A DNA stretch of 45,963 nucleotides, from contig CAYWFJ010000001.1 of assembly GCA_964458205.1 (NCBI GenBank), positions 1 through 45,963 of the forward strand, given 5' to 3'. The notes beneath the pieces are model-generated. The model ran no database searches. It saw only the letters and a program-made list of their open reading frames with translations, and was not told the DNA's origin. Source of the stretch: Candidatus Micrarchaeota archaeon. GTDB lineage: Archaea; Micrarchaeota; Micrarchaeia; Anstonellales; Anstonellaceae. A program made the translations under genes and the position numbers. Shown piece after piece: positions 380 through 25,149 of this stretch; position 1 is the first letter of the stretch; each line of letters begins with the position of its first letter.

Positions 380-409
380 TTCCCTATTGCGACCAAGAGT
401 GATAGGGAA
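380..409. promoter_or_regulatory. Perfect 8-bp inverted repeat TTCCCTAT-N14-ATAGGGAA between a TATA-like TTTTATTAA (359-367) and the start codon of the oxidoreductase operon
   Basis: Read directly: arms at 380-387 and 402-409, with the right arm overlapping the A of ATG 409. It lies between TATA and start, where archaeal repressors often bind. Function not shown. Confidence 0.3.
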
Positions 410-2160
410 TGGCGGACACAAACAGGCTAAACTTTCTCATAGGCGGCCCGGCAGGAGCCGGCGTTGCGACCATGGGCATCCTCTTTGCAAAATGCATGCA
501 GCGCGCCGGGCTCAACGTATTCGGCACCAACGACTACCCCTCGCTCATAAAGGGCGGGCACAACACTTATGCGATAAGCGCGAGCGACGAGCAGATAAAT
601 TCCCTTATGGGCAAGCCCGACATGCTGCTCGCGCTTGACCAATTGACAATAAGGCTCCACTCAAAATGCCTCTCGCCCGGCGGAGCGCTCATCTACGATT
701 CGAACAAGGTGAAGGAGGGGGACATCGCGGAGGGCAGGAAGGACATTTTCCACGTCGGCGCGCCATTCACCGAAATGGCTGCGAAAGCCGGCGGGGAGAT
801 AATGTTCAACACCGTTGCGCTTGGCGCCGCGGTCGGCGTCCTGGGGATGGACTTCTCGATTGCCGAGGGGCTCTTGCGCAGGATTTGGGAAAAGAAAGGC
901 GAGGAAGTCGTGCAGCAGAACATCGCCGCGGCAAGGGCCGGCTTCGACTACTCGCGCTCGGAGCTGAAAACCCCTTTCAAGGTGAAAATCGAGCCGGTGA
1001 AGCGCGACAAGACCATCTTCATAAACGGCAACGAGGCGGTGGTGGTCGGCGCCGTGAAGGCCGGCTGCAAGTTCGTGGCGGAATACCCCATGAGCCCCTC
1101 CTCGTCCATCCTGCACCTGATGGCAGGGCACGAGCGCGAATACGGGATAATCGTGAAGCAGACCGAGGACGAGCTTTCCGCTGCGCACATGATTGCAGGC
1201 GCGAGCTTCGCAGGCGCGCGCTCGATGACTGCAACCTCGGGCGGGGGCTTTTCCCTGATGACCGAGGCTTTGGGCATGATGGGCATGATGGAGCTGCCCT
1301 GCGTGATAATAAACTCGCAGCGCTGCGGGCCTTCGACCGGGCTTCCCACTTACACCGAGCAGGCCGACCTCCTATTCTCGCTTCACGCATCACAGGGCGA
1401 ATTCCCCCGCGTGGTGGTCGCGCCGGGCGATGTGGAAGAATGCTATGCGGAGACGATAAACGCGTTCAATCTCGCGGAGCTTGTGCAGGCTCCTGCGATA
1501 ATACTATTGGACAAATACCTCTCCGAAAGCTCCAAGACAACCGAGGATTTCAGGAAACTGCAGACCGGGGTGGAGCGCGGCAGGCTCATATCTGATTCCG
1601 AGATGGAAAAAGCGGAAGGTTTCAAGCGCTATGCATTCAATTCAGACGGCATCTCCCCGCGATGCCTTCCAGGGCAGAAGAACGGGCTGCACGTCTGCTC
1701 CTCTTACGAGCATGACGAGACCGGATTCTCATCCGAAGAAGCCGGGATGCGCGTTGCGATGATAAACAAGCGGGCGAAGAAGCTTGCGGCAATAAGCGAG
1801 GAGCTTATCGCGCCAACCTTCCACGGGGCGATGCAGTCCCAGGCCGAAATACTCCTTGTCTGCTGGGGCTCGACCAAAGGGGCGGCAATCGACTCCCTTA
1901 GGTTCCTTGCAAAGGAGGGCATAGCCGCAAGGGTGATGCACCTCCGCTACGCAGAGCCGTTCCCGTCAAAGCGCGTGCTATCTGCGCTCACATCCGCCAA
2001 AAGCACGCTCATAATAGAGGGGAACTCGAACGCGCAGATGCGCGAGCACATACTCAAAAAGACCGGCTATTACATCGAGAAGGCCTATCTTCGCTACGAT
2101 GGCAGGCCCTTCATCGCAAAGGACATAGCCGAGCACGTGAAAACAACCTTGAAAAAGTAG
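409..2160 (+). CDS. 2-oxoacid:ferredoxin oxidoreductase, fused gamma-alpha subunit
   Basis: 583-aa ORF. N-terminal gamma-type domain (FLIGGPAGAGVATMG), then alpha domain motifs (AEYPMSPSS, TSGGGFSLMTE). The TPP-binding beta subunit follows 9 bp downstream. Confidence 0.85.
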   Translation: MADTNRLNFLIGGPAGAGVATMGILFAKCMQRAGLNVFGTNDYPSLIKGGHNTYAISASDEQINSLMGKPDMLLALDQLTIRLHSKCLSPGGALIYDSNKVKEGDIAEGRKDIFHVGAPFTEMAAKAGGEIMFNTVALGAAVGVLGMDFSIAEGLLRRIWEKKGEEVVQQNIAAARAGFDYSRSELKTPFKVKIEPVKRDKTIFINGNEAVVVGAVKAGCKFVAEYPMSPSSSILHLMAGHEREYGIIVKQTEDELSAAHMIAGASFAGARSMTATSGGGFSLMTEALGMMGMMELPCVIINSQRCGPSTGLPTYTEQADLLFSLHASQGEFPRVVVAPGDVEECYAETINAFNLAELVQAPAIILLDKYLSESSKTTEDFRKLQTGVERGRLISDSEMEKAEGFKRYAFNSDGISPRCLPGQKNGLHVCSSYEHDETGFSSEEAGMRVAMINKRAKKLAAISEELIAPTFHGAMQSQAEILLVCWGSTKGAAIDSLRFLAKEGIAARVMHLRYAEPFPSKRVLSALTSAKSTLIIEGNSNAQMREHILKKTGYYIEKAYLRYDGRPFIAKDIAEHVKTTLKK

Positions 2161-2169
2161 CGTGATTTT

Positions 2170-3024
2170 ATGGCAACCGTTGCAGAGCTGAATTCCGGGC
2201 ACACGCCCACCTGGTGCCCGGGCTGCGGGGACTTTGCGATACTTGCGGCGCTGAAAGGCGCACTCTCAAAGCTCAACGTCCCGCAGGAGGACACGGTGAT
2301 CGTCTCAGGCATAGGCTGCGGAAGCAAAATCCCCCACTTCATCAGGACATACGGGTTTGAGAGCCTGCACGGGCGCTCGCTCCCCCCTGCAACCGGGATA
2401 CACCTTGCAAACGACCGCCTCAAGGTCATCGCAATAGGCGGGGACGGCGACGGCTGCGGGATAGGGATGGGGCACCTGGTGCACACCATGCGCAGGAACC
2501 TCAACATCTGCTACATAGTCCAGGACAACGAAATCTACGGGCTTACTACCGGGCAGACCTCGCCCACCACCCGGAAGGGGACGAAAACGCGCTCCACGCC
2601 GAACGGCTCAATCGAGCAGGAAGTGAACCCCCCTCTAATCGCGCTTGCCGCAGGGGCAACGTTCGTCGCGCGCGGCTTTGCAGGCGATGTCGCTCACCTC
2701 ACCAGCCTCATCGAGCAGGGGATATCCCACCGGGGCGTCTCGTTCATCGACATTTTCCAGCCATGCGTTACCTGGCGCAAGGACCTTCCCTACAGCCTCT
2801 ACCAGTCCAAAGTGTACAAACTTGAGGAGGCAGGGCACGACACAACGAATTTCGATGCGGCAATCGACCGCGCGCGCGAAACCGAGCGCTGGCCAATAGG
2901 GGTGTTCTACAAAACAGACAAGCCCATTTACACGGATGAAATACCCTTCATAAAGGACAAGCCGTTAGTCTCGCAGGACATATCCAACGTGGACATCTCA
3001 AAATTCATCGAGGAGTTCTTCTAG
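2170..3024 (+). CDS. 2-oxoacid:ferredoxin oxidoreductase, beta (TPP-binding) subunit
   Basis: 284-aa ORF with WCPGCGDF, GIGCGSK and the TPP motif GGDGDG...QDN. Operon partner of 409-2160. Confidence 0.88.
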   Translation: MATVAELNSGHTPTWCPGCGDFAILAALKGALSKLNVPQEDTVIVSGIGCGSKIPHFIRTYGFESLHGRSLPPATGIHLANDRLKVIAIGGDGDGCGIGMGHLVHTMRRNLNICYIVQDNEIYGLTTGQTSPTTRKGTKTRSTPNGSIEQEVNPPLIALAAGATFVARGFAGDVAHLTSLIEQGISHRGVSFIDIFQPCVTWRKDLPYSLYQSKVYKLEEAGHDTTNFDAAIDRARETERWPIGVFYKTDKPIYTDEIPFIKDKPLVSQDISNVDISKFIEEFF

Positions 3025-3745: not shown

Positions 3746-4834
3746 CTATTTCCGCTTTTCCATCGCCGCAAGCACGCGCTCTTTTGCAATCGCAAGCGCG
3801 GTTTTCCTTGTGTCCTTGCCGCCGGACCTTTCAAGCACGAGCAGAGTGTTCTTGGTTATCTTTTCGCGAACCAGGGAGAACATGTCCTTCTCGCTTCCGC
3901 CTGAAAATTCCACATAGGAGGATATCACGCCGCCAGCGTTTGCGACAAAGTCCGGAACGATTAGGATGCCTCTCTTCTCAAGCATAAGCTCGAATTCCGG
4001 CTTCGCAGGTATGTTTGCTGCCTCTGAGACTATCCTTGCATTTATCTTTCCCACATTGCCCTCATGTATCACGTTCGGGCGGGCGCCTGGCACCAGCACG
4101 TCGCATTTCACGGCAAAAAGGTCGGCTGCGGAAAGCACCTTTGCGCCAGGGTAGGCAGTCACAGTTCCCTTTTCTTTCTTGACTTCCATGAGCTTATTGT
4201 AATCAAGTCCGCTCTCAAGGTATGCGGTGCCCTTTGAGTCCGAGACCGCAACCACCTTCGCGCCTTTTTCAGTCAGGAATTTCGCCGTGAAGGTGCCCAC
4301 GTTCCCGAACCCCTCTATCGCAAGCGTAGCTCCGGAAAGGGGGATTTTTTTGTATTCAAGCGCCACTTCGGTCGCAAGCGCCACGCCAAAGCCCGTTGAG
4401 CCAAGCTCGTGCGGGAGGCCGCCCATGTCCGAAGGCTTCCCGGTTGCAGCCTTGGGCGTGCCTATCACGTTTGCGAATATGGCCATCTCCTTCTCGCTCA
4501 TATTCATGTCCGGGCCCGGTATGTAGCAGTAAGGCACAAGCTCGCGGATTTTTTCCGCGAAAGCGCGGACAATCTCGGCCTTGTTAGGCGCGTGCCCCAT
4601 CGCCCTTATGCCGGATTTCGCCCCTCCGAACGGTATCTCGGCAAGCGCGTTTTTCCAAGTCATTGCGCGCGCAAGCCCGAACACTTCCTCTGTGGTGACG
4701 TCGGGCACCAGCCGCACGCCGCCCTTTCCAGGCCCAAGCGCGGTGTTGTCCACCACGACTGTGCCCGACATTTTCGTCTTTGGGTCGTAAACGTGGAGTA
4801 TCCTCTCTGGGCCTATTTCATCTTCGAATGCCAT
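3746..4834 (-). CDS. Glu/Leu/Phe/Val-family amino-acid dehydrogenase (glutamate dehydrogenase-like, short form, about 362 aa)
   Basis: Motifs GPGKGGVRL, PFGGAKSGI and Rossmann GFGNVG. Start moved to ATG 4834 (MAFEDE...), which is preceded by GGAGGG. The track ORF extends to 4942 with no homologous-looking sequence. Confidence 0.85.
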   Translation of the reverse strand: MAFEDEIGPERILHVYDPKTKMSGTVVVDNTALGPGKGGVRLVPDVTTEEVFGLARAMTWKNALAEIPFGGAKSGIRAMGHAPNKAEIVRAFAEKIRELVPYCYIPGPDMNMSEKEMAIFANVIGTPKAATGKPSDMGGLPHELGSTGFGVALATEVALEYKKIPLSGATLAIEGFGNVGTFTAKFLTEKGAKVVAVSDSKGTAYLESGLDYNKLMEVKKEKGTVTAYPGAKVLSAADLFAVKCDVLVPGARPNVIHEGNVGKINARIVSEAANIPAKPEFELMLEKRGILIVPDFVANAGGVISSYVEFSGGSEKDMFSLVREKITKNTLLVLERSGGKDTRKTALAIAKERVLAAMEKRK

Positions 4835-4944
4835 ATTTTCCCTCCTATAGTTGACGCAAAGTTGCTTTGCGCATTTGCGAACAATGAATAAAAATGGATT
4901 GGTCGGCTGCCAGTTTTTTGTTTGGCAGCCAACCGGCGCCATCC

Positions 4945-5982
4945 CTACTTTTTCACGCAGCGCGGCGAACCGTACGAGACGTCACAGCGGAAGCCGGACG
5001 GGCAGTCGCTTTCCTGCCTGCAGGTTATCTTTATGCACTGGTACTGGCTTGCCGATAGCGGGTCTGTGTCGCAGCGCTCGTCATAGGCGCAATCGCTTGT
5101 CTTTGTGCACCTGCCAATGCGTGTCAGGCAGGTGTGGCTGTCTGAGTCGCATTTCTGCCATTCGCCGCACTCCGCGTCGCTTGAGCAGTAGCCTGTCCTG
5201 CTCTGGCAGCGCTTGATTGCCACATTGCACATCTGCCAGCTTCCGCAATCCCCATCGGACGCGCAAAGCCCGCGCTTTGCCTCGCACACGTGCGATTGGG
5301 CATTGCAAAGCTCCCATGTGGCGCAGTCGTTGTCATTCTCGCAGGAGCCGCTTCCTGCAACGCACCGTTTGGTTGCTGCATCGCAAACCTGCCATTCCTT
5401 GCAGTCCAAGTCGTTGTTGCAGAAGCCCGCCCTTGCCACGCATCTGTTGGTGGTGAGGTTGCATCTTTGCCACTGCTGGCACTCGACGTCTATGCTGCAC
5501 CTTCCTGTGAGCGAAACACATTTCCTCTTCACGGTATCGCAGGTCTGGTATGGCTCGCAGTCGAATTGGCTGTTGCAGTTCCCTGGCTTGGGGGCGCAGA
5601 CATGCCTATCCGGGTGGCATATCTCGCTTTCGGGATTGCACTGCGCGTCGCTGTCGCAAAAGCCAGCCTTCGGCCTGCAGCTGTTGCTTGCAGAATCGCA
5701 AAGCTGCCATCCTCCGCAGTCTGTGTCCAGCCTGCAGCGGTTTTTCTGGTAGGAGCAATAATGGGTGGCGTCGCACATCTTCATCGTGTCATTGCAGTCC
5801 GAGTCAAGGTTGCAGGCGCCGCTTTTCAGCGTGCATTTCTTGATTCCGGTTTCGCAATATTGCCATGCCTTGCATTGGCTGTCCTTCGTGCAGCTGGTGC
5901 TTCCGCTTCCGGCGCATCCTGACAGCGCCAGGAGCGCAACAATCCCGATCACAGCGAGCAGCAAACAAGTCTTCCGTGCCAA
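4945..5982 (-). CDS. secreted cysteine-rich repeat lipoprotein (12 x ~26-aa C-x5-C-x5-C-x6-C modules)
   Basis: 345-aa ORF with a TTG start. Signal peptide with lipobox-like LLALSGC, then 12 tandem modules (48 Cys) with recurring D-x-D-C and W-Q-x-C positions. Confidence 0.8.
   Translation of the reverse strand: MARKTCLLLAVIGIVALLALSGCAGSGSTSCTKDSQCKAWQYCETGIKKCTLKSGACNLDSDCNDTMKMCDATHYCSYQKNRCRLDTDCGGWQLCDSASNSCRPKAGFCDSDAQCNPESEICHPDRHVCAPKPGNCNSQFDCEPYQTCDTVKRKCVSLTGRCSIDVECQQWQRCNLTTNRCVARAGFCNNDLDCKEWQVCDAATKRCVAGSGSCENDNDCATWELCNAQSHVCEAKRGLCASDGDCGSWQMCNVAIKRCQSRTGYCSSDAECGEWQKCDSDSHTCLTRIGRCTKTSDCAYDERCDTDPLSASQYQCIKITCRQESDCPSGFRCDVSYGSPRCVKK
4948..5892 (-). repeat. in-frame tandem coding repeat, period about 78 bp, 12 units
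   Basis: Protein-level periodicity read from the ORF translation (CTKDSQCKAWQYCETGIKKC / CRLDTDCGGWQLCDSASNSC / CNNDLDCKEWQVCDAATKRC and so on). The units are diverged at DNA level. Confidence 0.8.
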
Positions 5983-6021
5983 AAAACCACCCTTACTCCC
6001 TTTCAGCGGTTTTTTTCAGTC

Positions 6022-6065
6022 GGCTAAAATTAAAAAGGGACCGTCCTGCGAAAGGGGTTCGCAGG
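6022..6065 (-). terminator. hairpin plus T-run downstream of the DUF4139-like gene
   Basis: 8-bp stem CCTGCGAA/TTCGCAGG (6045-6065). On the minus strand it is followed by CCCTTTTTTAATTTT. The same AT-rich run could serve as TATA for the cysteine-rich gene. Confidence 0.4.
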
Positions 6066-6081
6066 GCGGGGCGGTTGCCGC

Positions 6082-7617
6082 CTATTTCGGGGCATCAACC
6101 GGATAGGCTATTCCTGCCATCGCATTGCCGTAATAGACTGGCTGCTCGAAGTAGGTGGCCTTGTAGGAATAGGCCACCACGAGCTTCCCGCCTGCCGGAA
6201 CCACAACTTTCCATTCAAGGCGGTTGTCTGACAGCCTTGCTGCCGGGGCGCTTGATTCCAGAAGCTCGACCTTGTCGGCATAATTCATGCTGTCCCGAAG
6301 CGTCACAGGGGCAGGCTCCTTGAGGCTGTTCTCGATTGCCATCGAAACGGAATACGTGATTTCGCGCCGGTCTGCGGCCGGCTTCTCAGTCGTCTGGTTG
6401 GTTTCCTTCTTTATCTCGACTTGCTGGAGGGGCGCATAGTTCACATGCGCCTCCTTCCCCTCGCCGGTGTATTGCACATAGCCTTCCCCTGCAAACGCGC
6501 CCGATTCGAACACCTTCATTATGCCGGCGGCAATCGGCTTCCCCAGTGTGTTCTTGAGGTTGAGCATCCGCCTGACAGGGCCGTAGCCCTCCCACAGGTT
6601 CTCCTTCTCATATTGGATGCCCGACTCGAAAATCTTCAGGTTCGCCCGCTCGTTTTTCAGGATGGTCGCAGGCTCGGAGAGGGTGTAGACATATTGCATG
6701 CCGGCCTCCTCGCCAGAGAAAACAGGCGCAGCCGAGGGAGCCTGGCCCCCGGCAAGCGCAATCTCCTTCCTCGCGTCGCCCGAAAAATCATAATTGTAAT
6801 ACTGGGCAGCTCCGTTTCTTACGAAATTCGGCTGGCCGACCGCAAGCCTTAGCACGACGTTTCTCCAGTCCTCGCCTGCGTAATTCGAGACCTCGCCAAA
6901 TGCCGCCAGGCGGGCGCTTCCGGATGCCGCGCCTGCCATCTCAAGGTTGTAATTCGGCTGCCAGTTTGCGCCCGATGTCATGTAGCTGAAGAGAAGGTCA
7001 TGCGCCCCAGCGCGATTTGCCCCCATGTAGACTTCCAGCCCGCGCTCGCGCACGGTGCCGTTTTTCTCCTCGGTTTTTTTCGTCTCGGATGCGTTCATGA
7101 GCACGTTCTTAAGCCCGCCGTCCACCACGAGGAGGCCAGCCTGGGTCTCAATGCCGATTTTCCCGCCCGACACCCACAGGAGCTTCCCTGCGGTTTCGCC
7201 GCTTTCAAGCCGCACCACCACCTCCTTGCCGTATGACTGGTTGAGCAGCTCGTCAAACGTCAGGTAGCGCTCGCTTTTCTCGCTTGTGTTCCTTTCCTCA
7301 TCGTACCTCTTCACCCAGTGGACCGAGCCGTCCGCATCCTCCGCCCGAAGCGTGTCAAGTATCGCGCCCTCGGTGAAGTTCGCTATCCTAAGGTGCGTGT
7401 TTCCGGCGCTTGGCACCTCCGCTTTCCCGGAAGACGACACAAACGCCATCCCGTTCGAGTATATGAGGACCGAGTTGACGGCAGACGCCATGCCAACCGC
7501 GCTCTCCGCGCCGGCTCCCGCCTGGGGAATCGCAGTAAAGACCAGGATTGCGAAGATTGCCACAATCGCAAACGCCGCCAAGTACCGATAAATGCCATCC
7601 GATTTCTTATCCGCCAT
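6082..7617 (-). CDS. DUF4139-like secreted/anchored protein
   Basis: N-terminal TM helix (YLAAFAIVAIFAILVF). Central ANWQPNYNLE...GEDWRNVVLRLAVGQP resembles the DUF4139 signature. Start set to ATG 7617, preceded by GAGGTGGA; the track start 7626 is GTG. Confidence 0.65.
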   Translation of the reverse strand: MADKKSDGIYRYLAAFAIVAIFAILVFTAIPQAGAGAESAVGMASAVNSVLIYSNGMAFVSSSGKAEVPSAGNTHLRIANFTEGAILDTLRAEDADGSVHWVKRYDEERNTSEKSERYLTFDELLNQSYGKEVVVRLESGETAGKLLWVSGGKIGIETQAGLLVVDGGLKNVLMNASETKKTEEKNGTVRERGLEVYMGANRAGAHDLLFSYMTSGANWQPNYNLEMAGAASGSARLAAFGEVSNYAGEDWRNVVLRLAVGQPNFVRNGAAQYYNYDFSGDARKEIALAGGQAPSAAPVFSGEEAGMQYVYTLSEPATILKNERANLKIFESGIQYEKENLWEGYGPVRRMLNLKNTLGKPIAAGIMKVFESGAFAGEGYVQYTGEGKEAHVNYAPLQQVEIKKETNQTTEKPAADRREITYSVSMAIENSLKEPAPVTLRDSMNYADKVELLESSAPAARLSDNRLEWKVVVPAGGKLVVAYSYKATYFEQPVYYGNAMAGIAYPVDAPK

Positions 7618-7750
7618 CAAATCCACCTCTCAACCATCATTCCCCCAATCGAGTTATAAACGGTTGCGGTTTCGTTCGGGCGCGCTTCCCGCGGTTTCCA
7701 AAGCCCCCCTGGATGATAGCTTTTTAATATTTGGAACGGCAAGCCCGAAC

Positions 7751-8557
7751 ATGAGATTCCAACCAATCCTTTTCGCGCTGGCGCTCTGCCCCGCCCTTTT
7801 CGCGGCAAGCATACTCTCACCCGTTTCAATCAGGGTGGAGGACGGCATGCGGATTGCGCTTGGGGATGTTGGCCCCGGGCAGACATTCTTCGTAATTGCC
7901 GAGCCGAAGGAGGGGACGGGCGGCAAATACGGGATAGGCGGCGCATACGACCAGCTGGTCGCAACCTCGCTTCCGGAAGGCTGGTCCTCCACCCCCTCCA
8001 GGCTATATGGGAACCCCCTTCAGGCGGAGATAACCGTCCCGAAGGATGCGCAGGACGGGGAATACGATGTCGGGCTTACCCTCTGGGACGAGGCGGGAAG
8101 CGAAGGGCTGGGGCCGAATGTGACATTCACCGTCCGGGCGAAAGTCATCCGGGAAGTGATGGACATGCGGGTTGAGCCTTCGCACGTGTCTGCGGGCGCA
8201 GGCCAGCCGGCAAGGTATGTGATAACGATAATGAACAAGGGAATCGCGAATGACGTTTTCAACATAGGCTCCTCTGGGGTGCGCGATTGGGAGTTCCGGC
8301 GCAGCATCTACATCCCCTCCGGCACATCGAAAACCCTCACTTACGAGGTAGTCGGCAACGAGGAGGCGGATTACCGCGTGAAACTGCTCGCCCGCTCGTC
8401 TTCAAGCGACCGGATAAGCGCTGAGAGGGAAGTCACGCTCCGCGTGAACACCGACCTTTTCTCGGATTTCCGCGCAGTGAACAGGGGCGTGCTCCTCTTC
8501 CCGCTCACAGAGGCGCCGCTTTACTTCATAGTGGGCATCCTTTCGAATTTCATCTAG
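7751..8557 (+). CDS. secreted hypothetical protein with C-terminal hydrophobic anchor (possible Ig-like/CARDB-like repeats)
   Basis: Signal peptide MRFQPILFALALCPALFAAS. Start at ATG 7751, about 20-25 nt after CTTTTTAATATTT. C-terminal LYFIVGILSNFI. The fold assignment is a guess. Confidence 0.55.
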   Translation: MRFQPILFALALCPALFAASILSPVSIRVEDGMRIALGDVGPGQTFFVIAEPKEGTGGKYGIGGAYDQLVATSLPEGWSSTPSRLYGNPLQAEITVPKDAQDGEYDVGLTLWDEAGSEGLGPNVTFTVRAKVIREVMDMRVEPSHVSAGAGQPARYVITIMNKGIANDVFNIGSSGVRDWEFRRSIYIPSGTSKTLTYEVVGNEEADYRVKLLARSSSSDRISAEREVTLRVNTDLFSDFRAVNRGVLLFPLTEAPLYFIVGILSNFI

Positions 8558-8612
8558 CCGCGGTGTTTTCTTGCCAGTGAAAAAGGGGGTCAATAGCGCA
8601 CATGCCGCGGCC

Positions 8613-10235
8613 ATGGCGCGGCTTGATGGCAAACTGCCGTTCTTCTCGCCTAAAAAGCGTGCGCCCCAAAGCGCAGCAAGGCAGGGCGCCGCAAAGGAGG
8701 CGGCGTCCCTTTTCATTGCGAATCCCTCCGCGCAGCTTGAGCGCATAAAGAACGCAATGTGCCGCAAGCACGGCATAACCTATCTCAAGAACTCCGAAAT
8801 ACTCCAATTCGTCCCTCCAACAGATGGGCGCGCCCGCCGCATCCTCCTCAAATCCCCGACGCGCACCCTGTCAGGGGTATCCCCAATCGCGCTCATGCCG
8901 CCGCCCTACCCGTGCGTGGGGCGGTGCGCCTACTGCCCCAAGGGGGTGAACGCCCCGCAGTCCTACACCGGCTTCGAGCCGACCACCATGCGCGCGATAC
9001 AGTGCGGCTATTCCGCGGAAAAGCAGGTCGGGGCGCGCCTGGGCCAGTATTCCCAGCAGGGGCACGGGACCGACAAATGCCACCTCATATTCATGGGCGG
9101 CACCTTCCTTGCCGCGCCAGCCGCTTCCCGCCGCAAATTCGTGAAGGAGGCATTTGACGCGCTCAACGGCTCTGTTTCGCGCACCCTTGCGGAATCGATA
9201 AGCGCGAACGAGACTGCAAGGCACCGCGCAATCGGGGCGACTTTTGAAACCCGCCCGGACTTCGCAGGCGCGCGCGAAGCGGACGAAATGCTCTCACTCG
9301 GGGGGACGCAGGCCGAGCTTGGCGTGCAGTCCCTCTCGGACCAAGTCTACCGAAAAGTCAACCGCGGTCACACGCTTCTTCATGTTGAGCGCGCAACGCG
9401 CATCCTCAAGGACTCGGGCTTCAAGGTCTGCTACCACATGATGCCCGGGCTTTACTCGGGCCCGCGCCAGGATGCAGAGTACTTCCGGCGGCTTTTTTCC
9501 ACCTCGCGCTTCCAGCCGGACATGGTCAAGATTTACCCGGTCCTCGTCCTTCCTGGCACCAGGCTTTACGATGAATGGAAAGCCGGGCGGTTCTCCCCCT
9601 ATGGCACCGAGGAGGCGGCAAAGGCAATCGCCGCTGCTATCAGGCACGTCCCGCCCTATGTCCGAATCCCCCGGATACAGCGGGACATCCCATCCCCCCT
9701 TGTCCTGGCAGGGGTGAAAAGCTCCAACCTGCGCCAAATGGTGGAAGGGCGGCTGCGCGAAGAGGGCGCGGCATGCCGCTGCATACGCTGCCGCGAGGCG
9801 GGAAGCGCAGCCCGCCAGGGCCGAGAATCAAAACAGCTTTCGCTTTCCCTCCTGCGCCAGGACTATTTTGCCTCCGGAGGCAGGGAAACATTCCTTTCAT
9901 TCGAGGATGAGAAGCAGGATATCATTGCGGGCTTCTTGCGCCTGCGAATGCCGGGCAAAAGCCACCGCGCCGAAATCTCGGACGGAACCGGCATCCTCTC
10001 GTCTCTTGTGCGCGAGCTCCATGTTTACGGGCAGGAGGCGTCCATCGGCGAGAAAAGCGAGGGCAAATTCCAGCACAAGGGGCTGGGGCAACGGCTTCTT
10101 CGCGAGGCGGAGCGCATAACGAAAAAAGAATTCGGCATCGGGAAAATCTCCGTCCTCTCAGGCGCAGGCGCTCGCGGCTATTACCGCAAGCTTGGCTACT
10201 CGCTTTGCGGGCCTTACATGCAGAAGAGGGTCTGA
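8613..10235 (+). CDS. elp3: tRNA uridine(34) modification radical SAM/GNAT enzyme Elp3
   Basis: Radical SAM cluster motif CVGRCAYCPKG and C-terminal GNAT motif HKGLGQRLLREAE. Start uncertain: TTG 8571, GTG 8577 or ATG 8613. Confidence 0.85.
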   Translation: MARLDGKLPFFSPKKRAPQSAARQGAAKEAASLFIANPSAQLERIKNAMCRKHGITYLKNSEILQFVPPTDGRARRILLKSPTRTLSGVSPIALMPPPYPCVGRCAYCPKGVNAPQSYTGFEPTTMRAIQCGYSAEKQVGARLGQYSQQGHGTDKCHLIFMGGTFLAAPAASRRKFVKEAFDALNGSVSRTLAESISANETARHRAIGATFETRPDFAGAREADEMLSLGGTQAELGVQSLSDQVYRKVNRGHTLLHVERATRILKDSGFKVCYHMMPGLYSGPRQDAEYFRRLFSTSRFQPDMVKIYPVLVLPGTRLYDEWKAGRFSPYGTEEAAKAIAAAIRHVPPYVRIPRIQRDIPSPLVLAGVKSSNLRQMVEGRLREEGAACRCIRCREAGSAARQGRESKQLSLSLLRQDYFASGGRETFLSFEDEKQDIIAGFLRLRMPGKSHRAEISDGTGILSSLVRELHVYGQEASIGEKSEGKFQHKGLGQRLLREAERITKKEFGIGKISVLSGAGARGYYRKLGYSLCGPYMQKRV

Positions 10236-12475: not shown

Positions 12476-12649
12476 TGCGACCGCCGGGATTTTCAGCCCC
12501 CATTTCTTTTGGGGTCGAAAGACCTTTTCTTCCGGGAAGAAAAGGGATTTCATTTGAACCCGGCTCGCGAGATTTAGGCGGCCAATTCCGCATAAATCGC
12601 CAATCAGCCTTGGCAATCTCGAATCCTAACCAGGCTAGACTACGGTCGC
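12476..12649 (-). tRNA. tRNA-Gly(GCC) with two introns (37 nt at 37/38, plus-strand 12574-12610; 63 nt in the T-loop, about 12489-12551)
   Basis: Hand-folded from the minus strand: GCGACCG TA GTCT AGCCTGGTTA GGAT T CGAGA TTGCCA[37 nt]A TCTCG CGAG CCGGG TTCAAAT[63 nt] CCCGG CGGTCGC A. All four stems pair, giving a 74-nt mature length. The T-loop junction is ambiguous by 1-4 nt because AAAT occurs on both sides. Confidence 0.8.
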
Positions 12650-13689
12650 AGCAAAGCCTCATTTGATGGGTTTTGTTTTAAAACGCTTGCGCTTGCCGCC
12701 ATGAAATAGGCGCAGGAGAAGGCGTCCCCAAGCCCCACGGTCCATTTGGGCGATTCGAGGAATCTTGCTTCATAGCCTTCAAGCTCAGGCAGCGTTGCGC
12801 ACCTGCCGTTTTCAGCCTTGAACGAGGCGCACTTTTCCGCGAACGCCATCGCCTCCTTGTCAAGTTTCCCCGCTGGCAGCACCTCCTGCCTTTCAGGCAT
12901 GTGGAACAGGACCGCATTCGCCTCCTGCGCCAGTTCCGATAAGTCGCAGCCGAACGAGGAAAGCTCGGTGTCATTCAGCCCGACCATGTCAACTGCAGGG
13001 AACAGCCTTTCCCGCACCGCATCCCGCACAGCCTCGGACTGGAATTCGCCAAGCTCCGCAAAAACGCAAAGGCCCGGGTTTATCTTTTTCCAGCGGAGGA
13101 TTTCATCAGTGAATTTGGCGAGCCTGTCCGGGGTTTTGAGGAGATGGAATCCGCCCACGAACGCCTTGCTGGCTGAGGGCAGGGCGGAATCGGCCGCCCT
13201 CTGGAAATCCTCCTCAAGATGCATGGGCAGCGGGTCATATGAGGCGATGAAGCGGGTGCGGCTTTCCTTGTGCTCGAACACGAAATGGTGCGCGCTTGGC
13301 GCCTGCGATGAAAACCCGCCAGCCGGAACAAAGCCGTCCTTTCCCGCAAGCAGTATTTTCTCCCTCTTCGAAAAGCGGGACAGGAGCTCGGAGTTGGCGA
13401 AATTGCTGTGGAGGAAGCATTCAACCCCAAGCGCGGACGCCTGCTCTGCCGCATTCCCTGCCTGCCCCCCGACAATCGAGCAATCGAACCTGATTTTGGA
13501 AAGGAGGGCGGCGCAGGTTTTCGCGTCGATGAGCGTTTCCTTCTGCCTGCCCTCGGCAAACGAGCCTGACATCTGCGAGGCGAGGGAAAACGATGCGGCG
13601 TCAATAAGCCCCATGTCCCCATCGCCTACGGCCTTGAGGTGGTCTATGTTCGCGTTGAAGGCGAAAACCGCGCGTTTCGGGAGTTCCAT
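12640..13689 (-). CDS. ADP-dependent sugar kinase family protein (glucokinase/phosphofructokinase-like), short 349-aa form
   Basis: AFNANIDHL, GGQAGNAAE, VGLNDTEL (NxxE) and C-terminal TVGLGDAFS motifs typical of the ADP-PFK/GK family. The last 10 nt overlap the tRNA-Gly(GCC) gene. Confidence 0.72.
   Translation of the reverse strand: MELPKRAVFAFNANIDHLKAVGDGDMGLIDAASFSLASQMSGSFAEGRQKETLIDAKTCAALLSKIRFDCSIVGGQAGNAAEQASALGVECFLHSNFANSELLSRFSKREKILLAGKDGFVPAGGFSSQAPSAHHFVFEHKESRTRFIASYDPLPMHLEEDFQRAADSALPSASKAFVGGFHLLKTPDRLAKFTDEILRWKKINPGLCVFAELGEFQSEAVRDAVRERLFPAVDMVGLNDTELSSFGCDLSELAQEANAVLFHMPERQEVLPAGKLDKEAMAFAEKCASFKAENGRCATLPELEGYEARFLESPKWTVGLGDAFSCAYFMAASASVLKQNPSNEALLRP
12676..12683 (-). 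promoter_or_regulatory. TATA-like TTTTAAAA about 27 nt upstream of the tRNA-Gly(GCC) 5' end, inside the 3' end of the kinase CDS
   Basis: Read directly. The spacing matches archaeal TATA-to-TSS distance. Confidence 0.4.
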
Positions 13690-13777: not shown

Positions 13778-13782
13778 ATTAT

Positions 13783-13855
13783 GCGGCTGTAGTCCAGCCT
13801 GGTAGGATCTGAGCTTCCCAAGCTCGAGACCCGGGTTCAAATCCCGGCAGCCGCA
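13783..13855 (+). tRNA. tRNA-Gly(CCC), intron-less
   Basis: GCGGCTG TA GTCC AGCCTGGTA GGAT C TGAGC TTCCCAA GCTCG AGAC CCGGG TTCAAAT CCCGG CAGCCGC A. Canonical cloverleaf, 73 nt, no encoded CCA. Confidence 0.92.
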
Positions 13856-13951
13856 TCCCATTCATAATCTGGGCATATGTCCGCCGCTGGCATCATCATT
13901 TCCCCCGAAGTTTCGCAACAGTTTATAATGTTCAGTCCTCAATCGTTAAGC

Positions 13952-21365: not shown

Positions 21366-23363
21366 TCAAGCCGGCCTTGCCCATACAGAATGCGGCGGGT
21401 TGGCTCTTCCGATTTGCTTTTGGGCGGATTCTGCCGATGCATTGGCCGCTCCCTTGACCTTGGTGTAAATCCTCAGCACTTCGGCAACGCTCCATGCCTG
21501 GGAAACTGCGCCTGCCGGTTTCATGCTTTTCGGCTCATATAGCTCAGGAAGCGTCCCGATGCAGCCCTGCCTCATCGCATCCGCAATCGGGCGCAGTGAA
21601 GAAAGAACCTGCCGTTCGGTTCCAGGGTAAGCCTCAAGCTGGGCGTCATAGAAAGCGCCCAAAAGCCAAGGCCATATCATTCCCTGATGATACGCGGAAT
21701 CCCTCTCTTGCGGGCTTCCGGAATAGGTACCGCAGAAGCGCGGGTCGGACGGGTCAAGCGTCCGAAGCCCAAGAGGGGTATAAAGGCGCGAGCGGACGAT
21801 GTTGAATATGTGCCTTTTCTGTATGCCGTTGAGCGGCGAATGCGGGAGGGAGATTGCAAACAGCTGGTTCGGCCGCAGGCTGGAGTCGTTCGGCTCAAGC
21901 GTGTCCATCAGCCGTCCGTCTTCCGAAAAGACAAACTTCTGAAAAGATGCGCCGGCAGCATCCGCTGTCCGGCTGCACACTTCCGCTGTCCGTTTGTCGT
22001 TGAATTTTTCCGCAAGCGAAGCCATGAACCTAAGGCCGGAATGCCAGAGCGCGTTCATTTCAACGCACTTCCCCTTCCTTGGGGTTGCCGCCCTTCCGTC
22101 CACCACGGCATCCATCCATGTCGCGGACGGCGATTTCACCGAAAGCAGGCAGTCCGAATCCATCTCTGCAAGCGGGTTCCCTCTCATGAAGGAGGAGATG
22201 GTTTCGCGCATGCCGCCCCAAAGTTTTTCGCGCACGAATTGCGTGTCCCCTGTATGTTCCACATATTGCCTTGCGGCGCTTATGAACCAGAGGCTGGCAT
22301 CAGCGGAATTGTAATGCGCTTCGCCATTCTCGCCTATGAAATTCGGCAATAGCCCGCCTTCCATTTTTCCGCATTGCCCAAGCAGAACCTCCCGGGCAAG
22401 CGCATGCCTCCCGGTGCACAACATGAGCCCGGGAAGCGAAATCATCGCGTCCCTGCCCCATTCGGAGAACCAGTGGAAGCCGGCAATTATCCCGCTATGC
22501 CGGCCAGAGTGCACCACAAAGGAGTCGGCTGCGCGAAGGAGCGCATCCCCGAAATCGGTCCGCTCGAATCCGTTCAGTCGGTAATTCGTGTCAGCAAGAT
22601 GGGCAAACCGCATTTCCTGCCTGTCAAGCACCTCAAGAGCTTCGGAAGGCGTTATCCCCTCGAGCGAGGCGCAGATGTGCAGCTCCTCCCCCTTCCTCAG
22701 TTCCGCGGAAAAAAAGCCTGGCGAAAAGAGGGTTTCGGCATGCGCATATCCCCTGTCCCGTTCTGCCGAATAAACCATGCTCCTATAGTTGTCCGGCGCG
22801 GGGGTGAATTTCCCTAAGGAAGCGCCCAATCTCATCGCCGGATTCTCAGTGCCAAATCCAAACCGGTCGGATGAGAAGCCTATTGCCTTATCCGATGCCG
22901 AGGGGTCTTTGTGGATTTGCCGGAAGGAAAGAAGCGGCCGCAACGAAAGCCTGGCTTCCTTCCCGCTTATGAGCCGGTAGGAAACCGCCACCGCATTCTT
23001 CCCGCGCACCATCCTTACGGATTTCTCAATCCGCGCGCCATTGCACGAATACTCGAAGCGCGGATGGCTTTCAAACGAGAAGCCTGTTTGCAGCGTGTGC
23101 CCTTGCGGGTAAACCGCGCCCGGGTATTCGTTTGCCGAAAGGGCGAATTCCTCCCCAGAAACCCTCGCGGTCTCCTCCATCTTCGAGAGCAGCACCGCCC
23201 TCCCCCCGAGTTCCTTTGCCTGCGCGACAAGGAGCCCGTGGTATTTGCGGGTGTTCATCCCTATCGCGGTGGATGACGCATAGCCGCCTATGCCGTTTGA
23301 GACCAGCCATTCCCTGCCCTTGGAATCCGGGAAGGCAAGCTCGGAAGGAGAAAGCGCGAACAT
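21366..23363 (-). CDS. glycogen debranching enzyme / amylo-alpha-1,6-glucosidase family protein
   Basis: N-terminal NGIGGYASSTAIGMNTRKYHGLLV and catalytic-domain HWFSEWGRDAMISLPGL. Start at ATG 23363. Confidence 0.8.
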   Translation of the reverse strand: MFALSPSELAFPDSKGREWLVSNGIGGYASSTAIGMNTRKYHGLLVAQAKELGGRAVLLSKMEETARVSGEEFALSANEYPGAVYPQGHTLQTGFSFESHPRFEYSCNGARIEKSVRMVRGKNAVAVSYRLISGKEARLSLRPLLSFRQIHKDPSASDKAIGFSSDRFGFGTENPAMRLGASLGKFTPAPDNYRSMVYSAERDRGYAHAETLFSPGFFSAELRKGEELHICASLEGITPSEALEVLDRQEMRFAHLADTNYRLNGFERTDFGDALLRAADSFVVHSGRHSGIIAGFHWFSEWGRDAMISLPGLMLCTGRHALAREVLLGQCGKMEGGLLPNFIGENGEAHYNSADASLWFISAARQYVEHTGDTQFVREKLWGGMRETISSFMRGNPLAEMDSDCLLSVKSPSATWMDAVVDGRAATPRKGKCVEMNALWHSGLRFMASLAEKFNDKRTAEVCSRTADAAGASFQKFVFSEDGRLMDTLEPNDSSLRPNQLFAISLPHSPLNGIQKRHIFNIVRSRLYTPLGLRTLDPSDPRFCGTYSGSPQERDSAYHQGMIWPWLLGAFYDAQLEAYPGTERQVLSSLRPIADAMRQGCIGTLPELYEPKSMKPAGAVSQAWSVAEVLRIYTKVKGAANASAESAQKQIGRANPPHSVWARPA

Positions 23364-23551
23364 GATGGGGCTTCGCTGCCACCAAATAAAAGTCTTCTGC
23401 TTTCCCCAAACGCAAAGCAGGGATTGGGGCGGGCCTGGCAATTCGCATAATGCGGGGCATCCCCCCTTTCAGGCGCCGAACGACTGCAATCGGCTTTAAA
23501 ATACTTGGTCTTGTAATGGGGGAACAATTGTTTTTACTTGGAGGTGAAACA

Positions 23552-24394
23552 ATGGCTGTTAAGGAAGGCGGTGCATCCGCACTGGAAAGAGGGGAATACG
23601 TGGTCGGCCTGGCAATACTGATTGCCGCATGCCTCATCTCTTTCTCGGTTTATTACGGCGCGCAAGGCGTCTCAAGCTCGGTTGACAAGCTCAAGCTTAC
23701 CGTCAATATCCCTTCGGGCGCGGCGCAGGCGCAAGTGCCCGCGCAGCCCGAAACGCCATCTGCCCCTGCGGCTGTGAAAATCGCAGCCCCTGACCTGACG
23801 GGCGCGGCGTTCCAGGGCAAAGCCAGCGGAAAAGTCGTGCTCTTGGAATACTCCGATTTCGAATGCCCATTTTGCGGAAGGGTCCAGCCCACTTTGGCCC
23901 AGCTAAAGTCGGCGTACCCGGACGCGAAGTACTATTTCAGGCACTTCCCGCTTTCGTTCCACCAGTATGCGCAAAAATCCGCGGAAGCGGCGGAATGCGC
24001 GAACAAGCAGGGCAAGTTCTGGGAGATGCACGACATGTTCTATAAGAACACTTCCGCACTTTCAGTTGAAGATGCCAAGGCCCACGCCGCAGCCCTTGGG
24101 CTGAATACGGCTGAGTTCAACGCCTGCCTTGACAGCGGGCAGACCGCCTCCGCGGTCGCTGCTCAGATGCAGGAAGGCGCATCTTTCGGAATCCAGGGGA
24201 CACCCGGCTTCCTGATCTACTCAAGCACCGCAAAGGCAGGGCTTGACGCGAAGCTGTCGCCCATCGTTGCCGAGCTTACTTCGCTCGGAGTGGATGCCAC
24301 CCTGGTGGATGTAAATGGCGCGGGCAAGGGGATAGTGTTCGCAGGGGCGCTGCCCTATGCAAACTTCCAGGCTGTGATGAACGCCTTCAACTAA
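23552..24394 (+). CDS. membrane-anchored DsbA-like thiol:disulfide oxidoreductase (CPFC)
   Basis: ATG 23552 is preceded by GGAGGTGA. TM helix VVGLAILIAACLISFSVYY. Thioredoxin-fold motif LEYSDFECPFCGR. Confidence 0.75.
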   Translation: MAVKEGGASALERGEYVVGLAILIAACLISFSVYYGAQGVSSSVDKLKLTVNIPSGAAQAQVPAQPETPSAPAAVKIAAPDLTGAAFQGKASGKVVLLEYSDFECPFCGRVQPTLAQLKSAYPDAKYYFRHFPLSFHQYAQKSAEAAECANKQGKFWEMHDMFYKNTSALSVEDAKAHAAALGLNTAEFNACLDSGQTASAVAAQMQEGASFGIQGTPGFLIYSSTAKAGLDAKLSPIVAELTSLGVDATLVDVNGAGKGIVFAGALPYANFQAVMNAFN

Positions 24395-24411: not shown

Positions 24412-24470
24412 GGCGGCTTTCTCTGAAAGCCGCCCCTCTCCTTTTATTCTTTCTTTTCTCTTCTTTCTTT
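24412..24470 (+). terminator. 9-bp hairpin followed by a 36-nt pyrimidine/T-rich tract
   Basis: GGCGGCTTT ctctg AAAGCCGCC (24412-24434), then CCTCTCCTTTTATTCTTTCTTTTCTCTTCTTTCTTT. Confidence 0.5.
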
Positions 24471-24480
24471 GGTGCGTTTA

Positions 24481-25149
24481 ATGGCGAAAACCAGGAAATC
24501 CGCAAAGGGAAGGGGAATAACCGGAAGGCGAATTAGCCGGAAAATCCCGTCTGCCGCCCAATCTTCCGGTTTGCAAGCTACCAATCCCTCTTCAAGTGAA
24601 AGCAGCCCCTCATTTGGCACGCTTATCATAGTGGCAGCATTAATCCTGGCAGCCGTGTTTTTCATCATATCCGGCATGCTTGGCGGAAGCGCCGGGCAAA
24701 CAAAGGCAACGGTAATCTCGGGCATGCCGCAAGAGCTTCTGGAAAAAGCCGAGCTCGCCAAGAATGTGGAAATCCGCGCAAACGGCTCAACGGCAACCGC
24801 CAAGCCTGCGGCCCAGCCCCTTCCAGGCAAGGAGGTGGTGGTGGATTTCCTCTATGCCGACTGGTGCGGCTACTGCTCGAAAATGAAGCCGATTGTCGCA
24901 AAGGTGGCATCGGAGATGCCGGCCGGCCGCTTCGAGATTCGCTACTGGAACGAGAACGCGCGCGGAACGAACAGCACCGTTGCAGGCATCTATTCCGACT
25001 ATTCAGCAAAAGGCTATTTCAAGGGGTACCCGACATTCGTTGCGAATTGGAATGACACGCTCGCAGGGGCGGTGCCGGAATCCGAATTCCGCGCGTGGGT
25101 ATGCGGGCAGTTTGCAGCACCGCTTCCTGATGCGTGCGGCGCGAACTAG
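24481..25149 (+). CDS. membrane-anchored thioredoxin-like protein (WCGYC)
   Basis: ATG 24481. TM helix FGTLIIVAALILAAVFFIISGML. Active-site context DFLYADWCGYCSKMKP. Confidence 0.7.
   Translation: MAKTRKSAKGRGITGRRISRKIPSAAQSSGLQATNPSSSESSPSFGTLIIVAALILAAVFFIISGMLGGSAGQTKATVISGMPQELLEKAELAKNVEIRANGSTATAKPAAQPLPGKEVVVDFLYADWCGYCSKMKPIVAKVASEMPAGRFEIRYWNENARGTNSTVAGIYSDYSAKGYFKGYPTFVANWNDTLAGAVPESEFRAWVCGQFAAPLPDACGAN

Follow-up and report, generated by a model that had tools for sequence, protein, structure and literature searches.

The 45,963-nucleotide stretch analysed here (the window: positions 1 to 45,963 of contig CAYWFJ010000001.1, assembly GCA_964458205.1, from a Candidatus Micrarchaeota archaeon) carries a gene for a 345-residue cysteine-rich protein whose mature part is an array of twelve four-cysteine modules preceded by a signal peptide and a lipobox. 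With moderate confidence, we read this protein as a lipid-anchored, disulfide-stapled rod at the cell surface, serving as a spacer or an adhesin. It lies outside every characterised family.

Cysteine accounts for 50 of the 345 residues (14.5%): C6 falls in the signal peptide, C23 in a lipobox of sequence LSGC, and the remaining 48 in the mature part, where they form twelve consecutive modules of four. Eight of these (modules 1, 3 and 5–10) follow exactly the spacing C-x5-C-x5-C-x6-C-x6, which makes a unit of 26 amino acids (aa). Module 2 is spaced 5,6,5,6 (26 aa) and module 4 is spaced 5,6,6,6 (27 aa), and the last two modules are spaced 5,5,11,4 (module 11, 29 aa) and 5,5,8 (module 12, 25 aa). 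The canonical eight share the consensus C-x2-D-x-[DE]-C-x2-W-Q-x-C-[DN]-x5-C-x4-G-x, in which D4, the acidic residue before the second cysteine, W10 and Q11 are each present in seven modules and G25 in all eight. When the mature sequence was shuffled 20,000 times, strict modules numbered one at most and 0.001 on average, against the eight observed, and the autocorrelation of cysteine positions had its maxima at lags of 26 and 52. A first-pass annotation, made by a model from the letters of the DNA, had described 50 cysteines, twelve four-cysteine modules making up the whole mature protein, and recurring D-x-D-C, W-Q-x-C and glycine motifs, all of which the sequence bears out. It had given the spacing as C-x5-C-x5-C-x6-C-x5/6; this is strict in eight of the twelve modules, but the last gap is x6, not x5/6. 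Its remark that the repeats are diverged at the DNA level also stands, as Tandem Repeats Finder reported no tandem repeat in the DNA even at a score of 30 and identity between modules is 53% in nucleotides, 37% in protein and 26% in protein once the cysteines are set aside.

The array is shared with related genomes. A degenerate-pattern scan of the GTDB species genomes, made with two near-exact peptide patterns, recovered four loci (L001–L004), all in metagenome-assembled genomes of Candidatus Micrarchaeota (Micrarchaeia) and 48–58% identical to the protein in the window; a fifth orthologue (P0001), on a metagenome contig of the Joint Genome Institute, is 60% identical. The five full-length sequences are colinear module for module, and all 49 cysteines from C23 onwards are invariant. 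Residues particular to single modules have also been kept across the orthologues, including CNDT.K in module 2, PK.GF in module 3 and AKR.L in module 8, and in the divergent modules 11 and 12 every cysteine is invariant along with R303, S310, Y314, D326, P328, G330, D334 and R341. Such colinearity and invariance indicate that the array is older than the divergence of these lineages and under purifying selection. At this level of protein identity, synonymous sites are already saturated. The same twelve modules stand at the same positions in orthologues that are just 48–60% identical, in agreement with the annotation's view that the array is not a recent expansion.

This conservation also disposes of the idea that the gene is a spurious open reading frame (ORF) or a compositional artefact, for which the chance is negligible. 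Several long ORFs do overlap it on the opposite strand, and it begins with TTG, a rare start codon. Against this stand the invariance of every cysteine across five colinear orthologues at so low an overall identity, the 281 relatives returned by an exhaustive search, a confident AlphaFold2 (AF2) model, a conserved signal peptide, and Shine-Dalgarno-like and TATA-like elements 5' of the gene. TTG is also the start codon of the L001 orthologue, where it is followed by A-K-T. A plus-strand reading of 4945–5982 meets stops throughout, so the gene lies on the minus strand; the first-pass annotation had the coordinates exactly and had left the strand unstated.

The N-terminus has the form of a lipoprotein precursor. 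The positively charged n-region MARK is followed by the hydrophobic core TCLLLAVIGIVALLA and by L-S-G-C23, which fits the bacterial-type lipobox pattern [LVI][ASTVI][GAS]C, and the box is kept in all five orthologues, as LSGC in P0001, L001, L002 and L004 and as LYGC in L003. The earlier call of a lipoprotein with LSGC is thus matched by the pattern and by its retention, and C23 would be the lipidated residue. Lipobox proteins have been reported to be prevalent in DPANN archaea, in which the lipidation enzyme AliA (arCOG02177), of the archaeal AliA/AliB pathway, was reported 'with some gaps' (PMC12462473). Module 2 contains an N-x-T sequon, N64-D-T (about positions 5791–5793), within the invariant CNDT.K motif; it is kept in all five orthologues and is a possible N-glycosylation site. 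Identity to L001 is 59% for the cysteine-rich protein versus 80% for glutamate dehydrogenase (GDH), 71% for pyruvate:ferredoxin oxidoreductase (POR), 68% for a 321-aa secreted protein and 61% for ELP3, all encoded nearby in the window. This faster evolution, together with the conserved sequon, fits an exposed and possibly glycosylated surface protein. The relation of the neighbours to L001 also marks the window as a piece of a Micrarchaeota genome.

Structure prediction provides a fold for the module. The AF2 model of the full-length mature chain, built from an 8-row alignment, has a mean predicted local distance difference test score (pLDDT) of 78.7 and a predicted template modelling score (pTM) of 0.33; in it each module is a three-residue helical (3-10) turn at D-x-D-C followed by a two-stranded hairpin that bears C3 and C4. 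For modules 1–3 modelled as a fragment (6-row alignment), pLDDT was 91.8 and pTM 0.62. The first-pass annotation had offered a solenoid or a beads-on-a-string rod; the predicted modules are separate turn-plus-hairpins, which favours the beads over a continuous solenoid. A Foldseek search of the PDB with the three-module fragment returned nothing at E ≤ 1e-3. A single module was superposed on the squash knottin EETI-II (1h9h_I, 1w7z_A) with a root-mean-square deviation (rmsd) of 0.7–0.8 Å over 24 columns, 29% identity, a target-normalised template modelling (TM) score of 0.70 and a probability of 0.8, at E 1.4. Across squash knottins (EETI-II, MCoTI-II and the two-disulfide MCoTI-II intermediate 2po8) the fit was 0.7–0.9 Å over 22–24 residues, with target-normalised TM scores of 0.6–0.7 and E > 0.7.

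The resemblance to EETI-II extends to the cysteine framework. EETI-II has C9-x5-C15-x5-C21-x5-C27 with a D-S-D-C motif, the framework C-x5-C-x5-C-x5/6-C of the module, and its C2-x6-C9 segment resembles the C4-x6-C1' link between one module and the next. A knottin has six cysteines and three disulfides, whereas the module has four cysteines and is without the knotting I-IV bond and the inhibitory loop; the position of Cys IV (C19) of EETI-II is taken in the module by the conserved glutamine. A knottin is also a free peptide of 30 aa, unlike the twelve concatenated modules of a lipoprotein. In EETI-II the bonds are I-IV, II-V and III-VI, with III-VI threading the ring formed by I-IV and II-V. 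C1-C3 and C2-C4 of the module are the counterparts of II-V and III-VI, so that the module corresponds to a knottin core from which the knotting bond is missing: it has the backbone of the cystine-stabilised β-hairpin core (at E 1.4) and lacks the six-cysteine knot. By this analogy, the intramodule disulfides would be C1-C3 and C2-C4, or 24 bonds in all. Homology and convergence with the knottins both stand as readings of the likeness.

The array might instead be a multi-headed protease inhibitor or a toxin-like array, with modules working as squash-type trypsin inhibitors or ion-channel toxins. The best local structural matches of a module are squash trypsin inhibitors, spider knottin toxins (rmsd 0.7–2 Å, target-normalised TM scores of 0.6–0.7, probability up to 0.8) and the Ascaris carboxypeptidase inhibitor. 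However, the module begins only where Cys II would stand, and it lacks both the I-IV bond and the reactive loop, which squash inhibitors carry between their first two cysteines (in EETI-II, PRILMR). All structural matches of the three-module fragment have E > 0.7, no sequence match to inhibitor families was obtained in Pfam or the PDB, and in relatives the array is a linker to other domains. We regard such an activity as very improbable.

A cysteine content of 14.5% could also suggest an extracellular protein that binds or sequesters metal, either metallothionein-like or stabilised by Ca2+ or Zn2+, with thiolates and D-x-D as ligands; most modules have an acidic D-x-[DE] beside the second cysteine, and the first Micrarchaeota came from metal-rich acid mine drainage and from anoxic groundwater. 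The arrangement of the cysteines argues otherwise. The shortest gap between two cysteines is four residues, there is no CC, CxC or CxxC of the kind found in metallothioneins or zinc ribbons, and the spacing is regular. The protein is not poor in aromatic residues as metallothioneins are (7 Trp, 8 Tyr and 4 Phe), and it has a conserved tryptophan and glycine and a confident model of a knottin-core-like hairpin. The D-S-D-C of EETI-II forms a 3-10 turn and not a metal site. The mature cysteines are even in number (48) and the set of four is strictly conserved. Finally, genes for DsbA-like oxidoreductases are present both in the window and close to the orthologues. Metal binding is therefore an improbable account, less so than protease inhibition.

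The DsbA-like protein of the window is a thiol:disulfide oxidoreductase by its domain matches (Pfam Thioredoxin_4 at 76 bits and DSBA at 58 bits) and membrane-anchored by a transmembrane segment seen in its translation, along with a CPFC active site; a second thioredoxin-like gene stands directly after it. Genes for homologues of the DsbA-like protein follow GDH directly in L001 (12360–13238) and L003 (10721–11611), two genes 3' of the orthologue of the cysteine-rich gene. The two window proteins look like a pair that would form disulfides outside the cytoplasm of a DPANN archaeon, and the DsbA-like genes make it plausible that this lineage is able to oxidise exported cysteines.

By sequence, the protein has no place among named families of known function. 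The sole library model above its cut-off was Pfam DUF5885 (PF19232), at 48.2 bits against a gathering threshold of 33.2 (E 1.2e-12). The best stretch covers profile positions 26–108 of 265, about 85 positions, short of the full profile, and a similarly partial match (positions of about 15–109, in 3–4 repeated stretches) is seen in every relative tested, P0001, L002, L003, P0157 and P0155 among them. This partial coverage points to a repeat-level match and not to full-length membership; what is shared is one cysteine-repeat segment of a family that is itself of unknown function. Two further models stayed below their cut-offs, Dickkopf_N (PF04706) at 17.3 bits against 25 and DUF7107 (PF23416) at 12.1 against 24.6. 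EGF-like, LDL-receptor class A and TSP type 3 domains gave no Pfam match at E ≤ 10, and a sequence search of the PDB with the protein and a profile of 15 orthologous sequences gave only a chance WD40 match (E 5.5). The first-pass annotation had excluded the LDL-A, EGF and TSP3 spacings and had placed the module outside any named family, which was essentially right, with DUF5885 as the only partial exception; neither Pfam nor the PDB yielded a confident hit to any characterised family whose function is known. The exact protein of the window had no record in the assembly collection. Full-text literature searches found no paper for DUF5885, PF19232 or DUF7107. The one paper that brings together 'cysteine-rich' and Micrarchaeota (bioRxiv 10.64898/2026.06.07.730663) deals with another repeat, from fungi, and has no bearing on this protein.

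The module does recur well beyond this protein, and its distribution, which the annotation had marked for checking, proved broad. Word-indexed homologue searches, even with a profile, found just 3–7 proteins, and an exhaustive HMMER search over 1.84 billion representative proteins was needed; it returned 281 proteins at E ≤ 1e-3, of which 98 reached E ≤ 1e-10 and 22 reached E ≤ 1e-30. Many of the 281 have a C-x5-C-x2-W-[QE]-x-C module and a lipobox-like N-terminus. A hidden Markov model of the module found 1,153 instances in 170 relatives, and 614 of the 615 complete instances keep all four cysteines. Because of this near-total retention, correlated cysteine loss among the 1,153 instances gave no signal for disulfide pairing. 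Close relatives from the exhaustive search include P0006, P0022 and P0068, labelled Micrarchaeota or Micrarchaeia; P0155, a more distant relative from the profile homologue search, is labelled Myxococcota.

The usual architecture of these relatives is a signal peptide or lipobox, the array, and a large C-terminal domain. Forty-nine relatives have three or more modules and an array that starts no more than 70 aa from the N-terminus; 31 of the 49 have a lipobox-like motif, and 22 have 150 aa or more beyond the array. In three large relatives the C-terminal part is an RCC1 propeller (P0004), a VWA domain (P0035) or TSP3 (P0013), and in others an unassigned domain of about 300 aa. Repeat-only relatives are mostly short sequences, named Micrarchaeota fragments among them. 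The metagenomic hypothetical proteins P0004, P0007 and P0012 are 37–41% identical to the cysteine-rich protein over more than 200 residues, with the W-[QE] module and, in most proteins of this type, an N-terminal lipobox as well. They differ from it in their extra large C-terminal or central domains and in the last two gaps of the module, often 5,6 instead of 6,6. These lipoprotein-like relatives are probably bacterial, and their layout indicates that in them the array is a stalk that joins a lipid anchor to a globular domain at the far end. We also observed that P0022 (381 aa, labelled Micrarchaeota) has its N-terminus in common with P0008 (622 aa), in which cysteine modules stand on both sides of a cysteine-free central domain of about 230 aa. 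The two appear to represent a second, paralogous Micrarchaeota architecture, which suggests that the phylum reuses the module as a stalk element.

The results so far establish the gene, its periodicity, its conservation and phyletic range, the predicted fold and the lack of a characterised family to which it belongs. What we infer for the cysteine-rich protein is that it is lipidated, how its disulfides connect, that it is a rod and how long, and what it does for the cell. The protein would be exported by the Sec pathway and tethered to the membrane by a lipid at lipobox C23, and the exported chain would then be oxidised to its 24 intramodule disulfides. Each module would fold as a short 3-10 turn at D-x-D-C followed by a β-hairpin bearing W-Q-x-C and the last cysteine. 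The product would be a stiff beads-on-a-string rod, resistant to proteases and stress, that projects from the membrane by an estimated tens of nanometres. Its most likely role is that of a structural spacer or adhesive rod in envelope architecture or host-cell contact, and its functional surface may be the rod itself or the two divergent terminal modules, which would form a reduced distal element.

Several points weigh against the view of the protein as a surface rod. Function is read from architecture alone, and the pTM of the full-length model is only 0.33, from input alignments that are shallow in both predictions. The protein has no distal globular domain, so that the word 'stalk' leaves the cargo at its tip unsaid. 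Its faster evolution fits a surface or interaction protein, and would fit weak constraint equally well. Many Micrarchaeota live in low-oxygen settings, in which disulfide formation is less obvious. The neighbouring genes are housekeeping genes (GDH, POR, ELP3) and the gene is apparently monocistronic, so that no operon offers a clue.

A more specific version of the surface rod would make it a membrane-to-S-layer (surface layer) anchor or stalk, or a host-contact filament, which spans the pseudo-periplasm or bridges to a Thermoplasmatales host. S-layer anchoring in Micrarchaeota is unresolved, and a second stalk protein has been suggested (bioRxiv 10.1101/2021.04.28.441871), a vacancy that a lipid-anchored protein, rod-like in its model and conserved in the phylum, could fill. 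The gene is flanked by genes for secreted or membrane proteins (the DUF4139 and 321-aa proteins), and it evolves faster than its housekeeping neighbours. On the other side, orthologues were recovered from just four GTDB species with the two near-exact peptide patterns, and the protein has no recognisable interaction domain. This specific assignment is unlikely, although it is the least unlikely of the alternatives considered here.

The gene, its signals and its surroundings are listed below. The TATA-like and Shine-Dalgarno-like elements and the hairpin with its T5 tract suggest monocistronic transcription of the cysteine-rich gene, which would make the adjacency of the GDH gene a matter of synteny and not of a shared operon. 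The GDH gene follows in the window and in all four of the other contigs that reach past the 3' end of the orthologue, namely L001, L002, L003 and the P0001 contig. Its longest ORF is over-extended: alignment with L001 (MTFEDAIGPERIL) places the real start at 4834 (MAFEDEIGPERIL), with GGAGGG just before it. Inferring a function from an operon was considered and ruled out by the housekeeping neighbours and the terminator-like hairpin, which lies ahead of the putative GDH promoter region. The remaining genes of the window listed in the table likewise appear to be routine housekeeping genes of an archaeon. On the other flank, the DUF4139 and 321-aa proteins are probable envelope proteins; the L001 orthologue of the latter (272 aa, 68% identity) has a signal-peptide-like N-terminus. 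An inverted repeat, CCTGCG-N9-CGCAGG (6041–6081, minus strand), lies right after the DUF4139 stop codon and may be the terminator of that gene.

Table. Features of the cysteine-rich lipoprotein gene and of the surrounding window (positions of the window)
Feature	Position	Strand	Remarks
Cysteine-rich lipoprotein coding sequence	4945–5982	minus	complete, 345 aa; TTG start at 5982, TAG stop at 4945–4947; from ORF list and orthologues
Signal peptide (aa 1–23)	5914–5982	minus	n-region MARK, hydrophobic core, lipobox L20-S-G-C23; read from sequence
Modules 1–10 (aa 31–291)	5110–5892	minus	ten four-cysteine modules of 26/27 aa
Modules 1–3 (aa 31–108)	5659–5892	minus	high-confidence AF2 fragment; includes N64-D-T sequon
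Modules 11–12 (aa 292–345)	4948–5109	minus	divergent terminal modules; putative membrane-distal tip
TATA-box-like element TTTTTAATTTTA	6025–6036	minus	43–54 nucleotides 5' of start codon; read from sequence, promoter role putative
Shine-Dalgarno-like AGGGTGG	5987–5993	minus	5–11 nucleotides 5' of TTG; putative, from sequence
Terminator-like hairpin, 12 bp (4923–4934 / 4901–4912), and T5 (4890–4894)	4890–4934	minus	between cysteine-rich and GDH genes; putative, from sequence
POR alpha and beta	409–3024	plus	
GDH, longest ORF	3746–4942	minus	over-extended by 36 codons; abuts stop codon of cysteine-rich gene
DUF4139 protein, 514 aa	6082–7626	minus	upstream of cysteine-rich gene; also upstream in L004, absent in L001
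321-aa secreted protein	7592–8557	plus	weak DUF4625 match
ELP3-like radical-SAM/GNAT protein	8571–10235	plus	
ADP-dependent kinase family protein	12640–13689	minus	
tRNA-Gly(CCC)	13782–13858	plus	
Glycogen debranching enzyme	21366–23441	minus	
Membrane-anchored DsbA-like thiol:disulfide oxidoreductase	23450–24394	plus	one transmembrane segment, CPFC; not adjacent to cysteine-rich gene
Second thioredoxin-like protein	24469–25149	plus	directly after DsbA-like gene

Micrarchaeota, like other DPANN archaea, rely on physical contact with a host cell. To our knowledge, almost nothing has been established about the surface molecules of this contact or about how the S-layer is attached to the membrane. 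A lipid-anchored rod conserved in the phylum would be a concrete candidate for host contact or S-layer anchoring. The module, a knottin core without the knot and unnamed as a repeat, is relevant to how cystine-stabilised mini-folds evolved, and could be usable as a hyper-stable modular scaffold. If the protein is only a generic spacer, what is gained is hardly more than a helpful annotation for a family at DUF level. The protein is well suited to structural studies and to work on the DPANN cell surface, but it is not very surprising in itself, and its function rests on inference.

Among known systems, arrays of this general kind occur in other settings too. The full-length model had no significant global match in the PDB with Foldseek; the best match was the cysteine-rich region of the Entamoeba Gal/GalNAc lectin heavy chain (E 4e-4, TM 0.13), and the Dickkopf/MIT1 colipase fold was matched locally with a probability of 0.9–0.98. 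Against BFVD, strong local matches (E 1e-13 to 1e-7, probability 1.0, 17–26% identity) were obtained in Pithovirus, Cedratvirus and Pandoravirus, to predicted cysteine-rich proteins of transmembrane or 'EGF-like' type, which suggests that arrays of such hairpin modules are widespread; these giant-virus membrane proteins are themselves predictions and uncharacterised. Like the cysteine-rich protein, the Dickkopf/colipase, lectin and giant-virus proteins have arrays of disulfide-stapled β-hairpin 'fingers'; they differ from it in TM scores of 0.1–0.4 and in cysteine counts and spacing unlike those of the module. A bolder idea, quite unlikely in our estimate and a little more so than the plain anchor, is that the protein is the missing anchor, stalk or host-contact filament and derives from an ancient two-disulfide 'proto-knottin' module common to archaea, the lipoprotein-like and probably bacterial proteins, and giant viruses.

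The myxobacterial surface protein TraA also has a tandem cysteine-rich repeat, which has been proposed to form a disulfide-bonded rigid stalk (PMC3325183). Its repeat region is weakly similar to the cysteine-rich lipoprotein (E 7.6e-4, score 18 against a cut-off of 750), and the Myxococcales cysteine-rich repeat TIGR04201 likewise stayed below its cut-off (15 bits against 25, E 0.02). The TIGR04201 profile has 22 positions, in contrast to the 26-aa module with its W-Q motif, and TraA has a PA14 head and a MYXO-CTERM tag, both absent from the archaeal lipoprotein. The protein thus belongs to a known kind, the disulfide-rich tandem-repeat surface rods; what is new is the unnamed 26-aa W-Q module with its likeness to a knottin core, the repeat-only architecture, and the DPANN host.

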